Source: Syntrophales bacterium (GTDB lineage: Bacteria; Desulfobacterota; Syntrophia; Syntrophales; PHBD01). Taken from it: a stretch of 64,000 nucleotides of DNA. Position numbers and translations under genes: made by a program. Below the pieces are notes generated by a model. That model ran no database searches. It was not told where the DNA came from and saw only the letters and a list, made by a program, of their open reading frames with translations. This document shows positions 2,103-4,498 of the stretch, piece after piece; position 1 is the stretch's first letter; each line of letters starts with the position of its first letter. The stretch covers positions 2,432,001-2,496,000 of the forward strand of contig OY764159.1 of NCBI GenBank assembly GCA_963668175.1, read 5' to 3'.

Positions 2103-3797
2103 TCAGTCCTTCGGAGTGTCTGCTTTTGCTGTGCCCGCAGGGCTGCCGTCCGCGAGGGGCAGTTCGCCCTGGTCCTTGCGCCGCCGCGCGGTCCGCGCGG
2201 CCTTCAGGGCCTTGTCCCCGTCGGGTTTCCGGTCTTCGTTGACGTAGACCGTCTGCGACGGGAAGGCGAAGCCGCCGCCGCACGACTCGACAAGGTCCAT
2301 GATCCTAAGGAGCAGTTCCTCCTGCACGGCCAGGAACCTCTCGTAGGTCGTTTCCAGGACATAGGCGAAGATCTTCACATCAAGGGACGACGCGCCGAGG
2401 GCGGCGAAATGGACGCGGGCGCCTTCGTCGTCCACGGCGGGGTGCGTTTTCAGGAGCGCGCGGACTTCCGCCGCGATGAGGCGGATCTGGTCGGCCGTCG
2501 TTTCGTAGCGCAGGTTCAGGGTATGGCGGAAGAGAAAGCGGTTCCGGAGGGTATAGTTTTCGACGCTGATCGACGAGAGCTGGCCGTTGGGAATGAAGAC
2601 GACCGTGCGGTTGATGGTGCGGATCTGTGTGGAGCGCAGGCCGATGTGTTCGACCGTGCCCTCGTATTCGCCCGCCTTGCAGTAATCGCCGACGCGGATC
2701 GGCTTGTCCCAGACGAGGAAAACCCCGCCGAAGAAATTCTCGATCGTCTTCTGGGCGGCGAAGGCCACGGCGAGGCCGCCGACGCCGAGGCCGGCGAACA
2801 CGGCCGTCAGGTTGATGCCGGCGAAGTAATAGAAGATCACGACGAGGCCCGCGACGATGACAAGGGCCTTGAGAAGCGTCGCCGACAGGCGGATGACGGC
2901 ATACGTGGCGGCGGGCTGGCGTCTTTCGATGATCCCGGCGCCGACGTCGATCAGGCGGATCAGGATCCACGTCAGGCCCGCGACGGCCAGGGTCGAGGCC
3001 AGGAACGTCCAGAAAAGGCGGCCCAGGAGCGACACCGTGCCGAGCGACAGGACATAGACCGCCCCCGCCGTGAAGAGGAGCATCAGGGGTTGCCGGGTCC
3101 CTTTGAATGCCGCCAGCGTCGGTTCATCGAAGCGGCGGCGGAGCGGCTCCCGCAGCAGGAAGAAAGAGATCAGGGTGCACAGCCAGCCGAGGAAGAGGGC
3201 CGCGGGCAGGATCACCAGGGGCAGAAGCCAGAAATAAAGCTGCCAGCCCGCAATCCGGGTTTCCGTCAGCGCGGCCGGAAGGTGCCGTTCCAGCCAGGTG
3301 ACGTCGAGCTCCTCGTATATCTCCGGGATGATTTTGAGCGTCTCGGAGGAGAAGAGCCAGACGGGCGGATTGTTCTCCTTGCGGACCCGTTCGAGGAGGA
3401 TCTTGAAATCGCCCTTGCTCGTCTTGACGACCCCCACAACCTCGCTGTTGACGGGCAGGCCGTCGTTGAGGTTCCCCTCGGGCTTGGAGCTCAGGGACGT
3501 TTGCGCGGTCGACAGGCCCTGGTCGAGGATCTTTTGCAGTTCCTGGGCGAGCTGCTGGGCCCGTTTTCCCGTCTGATAGGTGTCCAGGTAATCGACGGCC
3601 CGGTCCTCGTTCCCCTTTTCCATGGCCTTCAGGAAGCCGACGAACGTACCCTGGGGGGTGCTGCGGCCCAGGGGGTCGTCGTAGGTATCCGCGGCCTTCT
3701 TGGCGGCGGGCGTGTCCGCCTTCACGGCGGAAGGGGCCCCGGCGATGGCGATACAAACGGCGACTGCGACGGCGAACAGGATACGGAAAAACGGCAT
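2103..3797 (-). CDS. MscS-family mechanosensitive ion channel with N-terminal periplasmic domain
   Basis: AGLGVGGLAVAFAAQKTIENFFGG, GTVEHIGLRSTQIRT and FAFPSQT motifs. Start placed at ATG 3797 behind GAGGAAGG. Confidence 0.9.
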   Translation of the reverse strand: MPFFRILFAVAVAVCIAIAGAPSAVKADTPAAKKAADTYDDPLGRSTPQGTFVGFLKAMEKGNEDRAVDYLDTYQTGKRAQQLAQELQKILDQGLSTAQTSLSSKPEGNLNDGLPVNSEVVGVVKTSKGDFKILLERVRKENNPPVWLFSSETLKIIPEIYEELDVTWLERHLPAALTETRIAGWQLYFWLLPLVILPAALFLGWLCTLISFFLLREPLRRRFDEPTLAAFKGTRQPLMLLFTAGAVYVLSLGTVSLLGRLFWTFLASTLAVAGLTWILIRLIDVGAGIIERRQPAATYAVIRLSATLLKALVIVAGLVVIFYYFAGINLTAVFAGLGVGGLAVAFAAQKTIENFFGGVFLVWDKPIRVGDYCKAGEYEGTVEHIGLRSTQIRTINRTVVFIPNGQLSSISVENYTLRNRFLFRHTLNLRYETTADQIRLIAAEVRALLKTHPAVDDEGARVHFAALGASSLDVKIFAYVLETTYERFLAVQEELLLRIMDLVESCGGGFAFPSQTVYVNEDRKPDGDKALKAARTARRRKDQGELPLADGSPAGTAKADTPKD

Positions 3798-3917
3798 GAC
3801 GGCAACCTTCCTCAAAAATGGTCCGCTTTTCTTATCACATGTCGGGAAAGAAATCCGCTATTTGATTTTACCGGGTAGACGGCACCGAAGGGGGGTAAAA
3901 AGCCTGGATATCGTGAA

Positions 3918-4085
3918 GAGCGCTGCAATGCCCTTATGCATAAGCTGAACTCAGCTTGATCGAAACTGCCATTGAGGCAGTTTACCTTTACTGCAAAGAC
4001 CTGTCGTTTTCTTTTGACCTCACAGTATGGACATTTCACTTATCACGTCCCGCTGACGTGACCCGAGCATTGCAGCTGCTCCGCT
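3918..4085 (-). ncRNA. Candidate structured non-coding RNA, 6S-like
   Basis: Terminal stem 3918-3931/4067-4081 encloses four hairpins. G-U pairs favour the minus strand. A sigma70 promoter lies directly upstream. Confidence 0.55.
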
Positions 4086-4092
4086 TAGGTTT

Positions 4093-4121
4093 AATTTATG
4101 GACGGTCCTTCCCTTTGTCAA
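4093..4121 (-). promoter_or_regulatory. Sigma70-type promoter for the ncRNA candidate / mscS
   Basis: TTGACA-N17-TAAATT on the minus strand. Confidence 0.65.
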
Positions 4122-4261
4122 GGAACGGGAAAAAATGAAGGATAATCAGGGGCTTCAAACGGCGGCAGCGGAAAACGGCGGGACGAATCGGGGAGGGGCG
4201 GCGGCCTCCGGGAAAGGACGGCCCGCGAAGGACGTCTCTTTCCGGAGGATGCGCCGGGCCG

Positions 4262-4498
4262 TCAGGCCGTCGTGTTCAGATTGTTCCCGACTTCGTTGTT
4301 TTCAATAAAAGGCGATTTTTGATTCTGCTGACTGCTTGCCGCCTCCAGGGGGTGCTTCTGCATGTACGCCGTTCTTTCCGCATCGGAAACGACGCCGTCC
4401 TTGTTGGTGTCCATCTTGTCGTAGACGCCGCTGCCCGATGAATCGGTGCTTCCCGACTGCAGGACATTGGTGCTGGATGTTACTGCCGATACCGTCAT
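4262..4498 (-). CDS. Small single-EF-hand protein
   Basis: EF-hand loop DTNKDGVVSDAE; AAGGAG SD upstream of the ATG. Confidence 0.7.
   Translation of the reverse strand: MTVSAVTSSTNVLQSGSTDSSGSGVYDKMDTNKDGVVSDAERTAYMQKHPLEAASSQQNQKSPFIENNEVGNNLNTTA

Follow-up and report, generated by a model that had tools for sequence, protein, structure and literature searches.

The locus raises the question of what occupies the 450-nt gap that separates, on the minus strand, a small ORF (4498-4262) from an MscS-family gene (3797-2103) in the window, by which we mean the whole stretch of 64,000 nt of Syntrophales DNA analysed here. The original prediction had placed in this gap a promoter and a structured RNA with three possible identities, namely an orphan 6S paralogue, a new sRNA or a cis-regulatory leader of mscS, and it had asked for an Rfam scan and for a search for homologues and covariation. 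Our analysis indicates that positions 4085-3915 of the minus strand are likely to be a free-standing gene whose product, a structured RNA of about 170 nt, belongs to an uncatalogued multi-copy family of Syntrophales. The window RNA and its close relatives were named type A. The features of the locus are as follows.

2103-3797, minus strand: gene of an MscS-family mechanosensitive channel, 564 aa from the ATG at 3797 (Pfam MS_channel_2nd, 2.7e-21)
3798-3914, minus strand: spacer between the RNA and mscS, with neither a terminator-like site nor a further sigma-70-like promoter
3915-4085, minus strand: type A structured small RNA, about 170 nt (fold z -5.9; 138 bits with R2, the covariance model of the family)
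3917-3933, minus strand: P1 closing helix, 3' strand, core GCAUUGCAGC (fold and 51-member alignment)
3942-3957, minus strand: P5 hairpin, AAGCUG...CAGCUU (fold and 51-member alignment)
3963-3983, minus strand: P4 hairpin, AACUGC...GCAGUU (fold and 51-member alignment)
3985-4030, minus strand: P3 long hairpin, with a purine-/A-rich apical loop containing Shine-Dalgarno-like GAGG(U) (fold)
4042-4062, minus strand: P2 hairpin, variable and absent from one subgroup of the family (fold)
4065-4082, minus strand: P1 closing helix, 5' strand, core GCUGCAAUGC, pairing with 3917-3933 in the fold
4093-4098, minus strand: -10 box TAAATT, spacer 17 nt (consensus scan)
4116-4121, minus strand: -35 box TTGACA of the RNA promoter (consensus scan), with TTGACA/TTGACT at the equivalent place in 50 of 51 members

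The promoter TTGACA-17-TAAATT (4121-4093, minus strand) scored 10 of 12 in the consensus scan and was the sole sigma-70-like site between 3500 and 4800, where 0.3 sites were expected from shuffles. The RNA starts with GAGCAGCUGCAAUGC, 11 nt past the -10 box; its 5' end is predicted at about 4086 +/- 3. The 171 nt of 3915-4085 on the minus strand folded with a minimum free energy (MFE) of -69.0 kcal/mol, whereas shuffled sequences reached -46.3 +/- 3.9 (z -5.88) and none of the 200 folded as well. In the predicted structure P1 comprises 17 bp with one bulge and encloses the four hairpins P2 to P5. The P3 helix of the MFE structure contains G-U pairs, and the transcript of the plus strand, at -58.9, has a fold weaker by 10 kcal/mol in which most of P3 is gone. 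The promoter, the pairing of the two ends, the four inner hairpins (with coordinates agreeing to within a few bases) and the strand-specific G-U pairs of the long hairpin had all been proposed in the original prediction, and all of them were recovered.

Two further features were seen upstream of the promoter. A G+C-rich hairpin at 4200-4253, directly behind the small ORF, is terminator-like without a U run and gave chance-level matches only in Rfam (mir-4449, P35). The ORF itself (4262-4498, minus strand) encodes 78 aa without a Pfam match and contains a DTNKDGVVSDAE stretch, which we take to resemble an EF-hand calcium loop.

Plain DNA searching found no second copy in the window's genome and no relative in 40 related genomes. 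Relatives were found with R1, a covariance model built from the window sequence and its fold alone. Run against 150 other genomes of the order, it returned 17 full-length matches, which were spread over 12 of these genomes (E 5e-12 to 0.014). With R2, matches were obtained in 32 genomes of an order sample of 151 and in 50 genomes of a second sample, also of 151, the window's genome being included in both; the second sample was labelled 'class', and every genome listed in it belongs to the same order. By taxon, the R2 matches covered 33/50 genomes in one family and 16/17 in one genus, with up to 10 matches per genome when type A and its sister, type B (described below), are counted together. 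No match by R2 was obtained in the 146 phylum-sample genomes outside the order or in the eight other genomes of the window's own family. The genome samples were run with the stricter filters of Infernal and limited candidates, so that absence means not found in those searched. Among the genomes searched, the RNA family was found only in Syntrophales. Because none of the eight other genomes of its own family yielded a match, the copies in the window's genome may be recent arrivals.

A Syntrophus aciditrophicus MAG carried a member (166 bits), located away from its mscS locus, and the complete genome of Syntrophus buswellii gave no match among 150 of 367 candidates scored. Two of the four metagenome contig runs examined carry the window RNA at about 86-89% identity. 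Copies of the family within one genome have diverged from each other. A profile HMM built without the window RNA had this RNA as its best match genome-wide (78 bits, E 8.5e-22). Since both the sequence and the pairing are kept in other genomes, in no fewer than 50 additional copies, chance is ruled out as the origin of the fold.

The Rfam scan identified no model for the window RNA. Rfam 15 gave no match on the window at gathering thresholds, only a tRNA was returned on the 17 homologous loci, and with lenient settings the A and B regions yielded nothing relevant. A promoter-driven, free-standing and structured gene without an Rfam match is what the new sRNA of the original prediction would look like, and that part of it appears to stand.

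The fold was examined in two alignments. A3 was an ordinary MAFFT alignment of 18 members, independent of the model. The five-helix structure was paired in 86.1% of its cells, as against 30-48% with the partners slid, and 11 pairs showed changes on both sides versus 4.7 +/- 1.5 in shuffles, a count reached by 0 of 500. Near-invariant blocks of A3 were found in P1 (GCUGCAAUGC ... GCAUUGCAGC), in P4 (AACUGC ... GCAGUU), in P5 (AAGCUGACUACAGCUU) and at the entry to the P3 loop (UUUCACUGGGAGGUAA). A5 consisted of 51 members aligned to R2. Here 83.9% of cells were paired, versus 29-44% with the partners slid, and compensatory changes occurred in 32 of 50 pairs, versus 16.5 +/- 2.3 in shuffles (0/500); A5 leans towards the structure because R2 guided the alignment. 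At many stem positions there is no variation at all, so that these carry no evidence either way. Over the 51 members P1 was paired in 91.9%, with changes on both sides in 7 of its 14 pairs; the corresponding values for P4 were 88.6% and 5 of 7 pairs, and P5 was paired in 93.7%, with an A-U to G-C change in seven members. Relative to the common form, P2 of the window copy shows the compensatory changes U-A to C-G and G-U to G-C, and the lower helix of P3 covaries (UU/AA in relatives versus CC/GG in the window copy). The homologues and the compensatory changes sought by the original prediction were both obtained.

Conservation peaks in the helices P1, P4 and P5, each of which contains a CUGC/GCAG or GCUG/CAGC core, and is lower in the loops. 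The models scored 97-140 bits on the sense strand versus 32-37 bits on the antisense strand. Antisense scores that lie so far below the sense scores indicate that the constraint acts on the minus-strand RNA. Sequence conservation extends about 50 nt upstream of the RNA, into the promoter. TTGAC[AT]-N16-18-TAnnn[TA] was matched by 44 of the 51 members, 38 of these with a 17-nt spacer, and in six of the seven non-matching members TTGACA is combined with CAnATT where the -10 box would stand. We also observed that a TTGAtACACCCc block is kept directly upstream of TTGACA in members (e.g. L095, L101, L103 and L126) and that the promoter spacer is conserved too (TTAACAATCAGCAG). The TTGAtACACCCc block and the TTAACAATCAGCAG spacer may form a regulator site or an UP element.

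The relatives also bear on whether the locus encodes a small protein, the GTG-started MKCPYC frame at 4039-3812 of the minus strand. The frame is open for 75 codons in the window's genome and has no Pfam match. The longest sense ORFs of 50 relatives fall into different frames and specify unrelated peptides (median 31 codons over 51 members), and across the ORF columns the length difference is not a multiple of 3 in 34 of these 50. Two close relatives, 86-89% identical, lack one nucleotide at 4038, within the start codon, in their contigs. The original prediction had considered that relatives might conserve this ORF instead of the pairing. The ORF is not conserved among the 50 relatives, and the protein-coding reading, which we regard as practically out of the question, was rejected.

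It is also very improbable that the family is a miniature inverted-repeat mobile element whose terminal repeats mimic the closing helix. Terminal inverted repeats of about 17 bp, several copies per genome at varied intergenic sites, and the location of 6 of the 17 first matches within about 100-220 nt of a contig end, which fits an assembly-breaking repeat, would agree with such an element. However, conservation continues about 50 nt past the 'repeat' into the sigma-70 promoter, the structure uses many G-U pairs and the antisense model scores far lower, the inner hairpins show compensatory changes, and the copies inside one genome have diverged. Moreover, there is no transposase near the members, an AMP-binding-enzyme neighbour is common to two species of one genus, and none of 18 pattern matches on viral contigs is a member. 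A mobile DNA repeat is thus probably not the identity of the RNA.

The pattern used on the viral contigs was GCTGCAATGC-N130-160-GCATTGCRGC, and none of the 18 loci that it returned was a family member by R2; a phage element was rejected on this ground. These 18 IMG/VR contigs (L174-L191) carry an inverted repeat with the 10-nt arms of P1, which is exactly 164 nt long in 11 of them, and most of the repeats match on both strands. The viral inverted repeats may be an unrelated palindromic element.

Type B was first met as weaker R2 matches of about 175 nt and 25-50 bits. With a type B HMM, a type B copy was found 9-68 nt downstream, on the same strand, of 37 of the 51 type A copies, so that the usual gene is an A-B tandem. 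Most tandem B copies end in GUUAGCCCC-like sequence, which in the examples inspected opens a hairpin with a U run. According to an alignment of 51 type B sequences (A6), type B is a rod of about 160 nt with a closing stem interrupted by internal loops, a bubble of about 25 and 20 nt, and a terminal stem-loop. This fold was paired in 88.7%, versus 32-44% with the partners slid, and 13 pairs showed changes on both sides versus 7.6 +/- 1.6 in shuffles (1/500). The type B helix ACUGGA/UCCAGU is near-invariant and shows no both-side change, which makes it uninformative. In the window's genome type B occurs as two solo copies, and the window type A copy has no type B partner. The two solo copies are located on contig C1 as follows.

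C1:185875-186039, minus strand: solo type B, 119 bits, between groEL and a ClpB-like AAA gene
C1:1295530-1295695, plus strand: solo type B, 80 bits

The promoter of the copy at C1:185875-186039 is TTGACA-N17-TAAATT, as in the window RNA, and its terminator is clear. Type B was also seen behind groEL and a cold-shock gene in another genome (L123). At four loci (L159, L166, L112 and L113) a type-B-like 5' half was combined with a type-A-like P5 hairpin (AAGCUGACUACAGCUU); these intermediate forms suggest a continuum between types A and B. At L111:1998-2837 (minus strand) a solo type B adjoins a phage-integrase-family gene; no other member was seen beside a gene of a mobile element.

The position of the window RNA, 118 nt upstream of mscS and on the same strand, invites the reading that it is a cis-acting leader, i.e. 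a riboswitch or attenuator controlling mscS, as the original prediction had proposed among its alternatives. In support of it, the only sigma-70-like promoter of the 450-nt gap is that of the RNA, no terminator follows, and the tail of the window copy is poor in T. Orthologues of mscS with 57-67% identity were examined at 30 loci in Syntrophales, Syntrophaceae and Syntrophus, and none of the 30 carried the RNA with R2 at E <= 0.1; R1 gave hairpin noise only, and blastn and nhmmer searches of the orthologue flanks with the intergenic region found nothing. The relatives precede convergent or unrelated genes, or type B, and no Rfam riboswitch matched the window RNA. Family members adjoin diverse unrelated housekeeping genes, often in convergent orientation, with neighbours including M23 peptidase, ABC-2 permease, TatA/TatC, deacetylase, acyl-CoA ligase, QueC, MFS transporter and DsbA. 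No gene neighbour recurred across the family members; an AMP-binding enzyme was the neighbour common to members in two species of one genus. The RNA is independent of mscS, and a leader function is improbable.

Transcription from the RNA promoter has to be considered separately. In the 12 nt after P1 the window copy has 4 T, whereas the median of the 13 scored solo copies of type A is 8; its count is the lowest among the solo copies, tied with two others. The spacer 3798-3914 contains ACCCCCCUUCG of the genome's type B terminator without its 3' half. As the window copy lacks both a type B partner and a U-rich tail, transcription from its promoter probably also reads through into mscS in this genome. 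Because no relative shares this arrangement, the read-through would be a local accident and not a conserved switch.

A second piece of mscS was seen outside the window. At C1:2431724-2431882 (minus strand), 118-276 nt before window position 1, lies a 53-residue fragment that is 81% identical to aa 512-564 of the window MscS. This C-terminal fragment sits just past a histidine-kinase gene and looks like a partial duplication or a rearrangement remnant.

The third identity, an orphan 6S paralogue, was examined at several levels. Canonical 6S of the window's genome was located at C1:873290-873484 (RF00013, 96 bits), and one was found in each of five carrier genomes tested (85-98 bits), i.e. in 6 of 6 genomes with that of the window. 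RF00013 gave no match on the window at gathering threshold and none at E <= 10 on 3700-4300, and it did not match the type B loci. Searched genome-wide at E <= 10, it returned the true 6S and two unrelated places, and nothing at A or B. The 6S-like rod is absent from type A, in which P1 surrounds four hairpins in the window copy and the 51 members, and is present in type B. As a claim of membership in the 6S family the proposal fails, with RF00013 silent at E <= 10 and type A folding as a five-helix junction.

Descent from 6S is a different matter. When type B is compared with the canonical 6S RNAs of its own genomes, their closing helices have CUGCGAUG..CGU in common at the 5' end and, at the 3' end, ACGGCAUAUGCGG or ACGGCAUAGGCGG, i.e. 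ACGGCAU(AU/AG)GCGG; the unpaired two letters are identical between B and 6S within three genomes (G160, G165 and G065). Six genomes were used for the best local alignment of B with 6S. In three of them it was matched by only 9, 13 and 15 of 500 shuffles. In the other three (G078, G125 and the window's genome) it was matched by 59, 79 and 311 of 500, the last being the window's genome, and was not significant. The local alignment of A with 6S was matched by 46 to 498 of 500 shuffles and was not significant in 5 of 5 genomes. Genome-wide nhmmer profiles of 6S, A and B gave no cross-detection except a weak A-to-B match (E 0.045), and the type B model R3 with filters off gave no match at the 6S genes of six loci. 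A loose two-ended regular expression for the signature of 6S and type B hit 28 places in the genome and was non-informative.

These results bear on the reading that the A/B family arose from the lineage's own 6S gene and is a diverged 6S-type RNA acting as a promoter decoy for sigma-70 RNA polymerase. The length and the promoter type are compatible with 6S; the layout of type B (closing stem, central bubble, terminal stem), the likeness of its closing helix to that of 6S in the same genomes and the alignments in three of the six genomes point in this direction. Against it, RF00013 does not score A or B at all at E <= 10, R3 and nhmmer do not recover the 6S genes, the B-6S alignment is not significant in the window's genome, G078 and G125, nor the A-6S alignment in any of the five genomes, type A has no open bubble, and one canonical 6S is retained in every genome tested. 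We consider a decoy of this origin unlikely. Because the objective tests of 6S homology were negative or marginal, descent is treated as a lead and the RNA is not filed under 6S; from the sequence comparisons, descent of A/B from 6S would itself be doubtful. Doubtful as well is the fuller picture in which A and B are 6S descendants that were multiplied in Syntrophales, up to 10 matches per genome and often as A-B dimers, and serve as graded or condition-specific RNA polymerase decoys beside canonical 6S. If true, this would be the first multi-copy, remodelled 6S-derived family. Overall, the new sRNA of the original prediction was upheld, and the orphan 6S paralogue and the mscS leader were not.

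How might an RNA of this kind work? The RNA would act in trans, and binding or titration of a protein is the mechanism that we tentatively favour, at somewhat less than an even chance. The helices P1, P4 and P5 are better conserved than the loops and the genome has neither Hfq nor CsrA, which together favour protein binding. Helix-over-loop conservation is unusual for seed-driven sRNAs; it could also come from recent spread or from gene conversion among the copies. The leading candidate for the partner, a weakly supported one, would be RNA polymerase, as for 6S.

Some regulators of small RNAs were searched for in the complete genome, where positive controls matched. Hfq (PF17209) had no match, and an Hfq-dependent sRNA was rejected on this ground. 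CsrA (PF02599) had no match either; with CsrA/RsmA absent from the genome, a Csr/Rsm-type sponge was rejected.

Nearly as likely as protein binding, and a real possibility, is that the RNA is a base-pairing riboregulator or an RNA sponge that acts through the purine-/A-rich P3 loop. This loop is Shine-Dalgarno-like, GGAGG(U)AA in the family and GAGGUC in the window copy, and pyrimidine-rich mRNA leaders, the 16S 3' end or CCUCC-loop sigma-54 sRNAs would be its candidate partners. The multi-copy, tandem 'sibling' organisation with own promoters and the GGAGGUAA-like motif conserved at the start of the P3 loop are in line with base pairing, and a sigma-54 sRNA locus near C1:4209065 has CCCUCC loops. 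However, the helices are conserved better than the loops, the homologous ACUGGA is buried in a helix in type B, the genome is without Hfq, and pairing with the sigma-54 sRNA loops is limited to generic 5-bp Shine-Dalgarno/anti-Shine-Dalgarno complementarity. A sponge of the genome's sigma-54 CCUCC-loop sRNA was dropped for this last reason.

Known RNAs resemble the family in different respects. Like 6S RNA (SsrS; RF00013), the RNAs are about 170-190 nt long, are preceded by a sigma-70-type promoter and have a long closing helix formed by the 5' and 3' ends, which, above all in type B, resembles that of the lineage's own 6S. Unlike 6S, the family is multi-copy and often tandem, its type A lacks an open bubble and forms a five-helix junction, and it has no RF00013 match and coexists with canonical 6S in 6 of 6 genomes.

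Qrr1-5, PrrF1/F2, OmrA/B and CcsR1-4 are tandem or sibling small RNAs. Such sRNAs are 80-150 nt long, have a conserved single-stranded seed and are mostly Hfq-dependent. Like them, the family has several diverged copies in a genome, often arranged head to tail and with promoters of their own, and is spread through one lineage, whereas its RNA is larger, folds more intricately, conserves helices over loops and occurs without Hfq. Orphan structured RNA motifs such as raiA and OLE were found by comparative genomics. Like these, the family is a lineage-restricted, intricate and well-conserved non-coding RNA without a fixed neighbour; in contrast, it is shorter than most of them, multi-copy and paired with a sister RNA, and it has no match in Rfam 15.

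Bacterial Y RNAs (YrlA/YrlB) bind protein through a stem made by their ends, and tandems of two related RNAs occur. A closing stem of the two ends and a tandem of related RNAs are also found here, but Ro/TROVE (PF05731) had no match in the complete genome, where controls matched, no Rfam Y RNA matched and no tRNA-like module was seen in the family. A Y RNA was rejected on the grounds of the missing TROVE protein and the missing Rfam match.

Syntrophales are key partners in methanogenic degradation. To our knowledge, almost nothing is known of their gene regulation, and a search at the level of titles found none on small RNAs or on paralogues of 6S in Syntrophus or Syntrophales. What is new here is a well-supported RNA family that combines a consensus promoter with a five-helix fold, is accompanied by a sister RNA and reaches ten matches in a genome. 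The models R2 and R3 and the alignments A5 and A6 could be converted to Rfam entries. The region upstream of mscS in this genome should be labelled neither as a riboswitch nor as 6S. With helices better conserved than loops and a faint link to 6S, the idea of a protein partner is open to testing. Should this partner be RNA polymerase, the family would illustrate the duplication and remodelling of a universal regulator.
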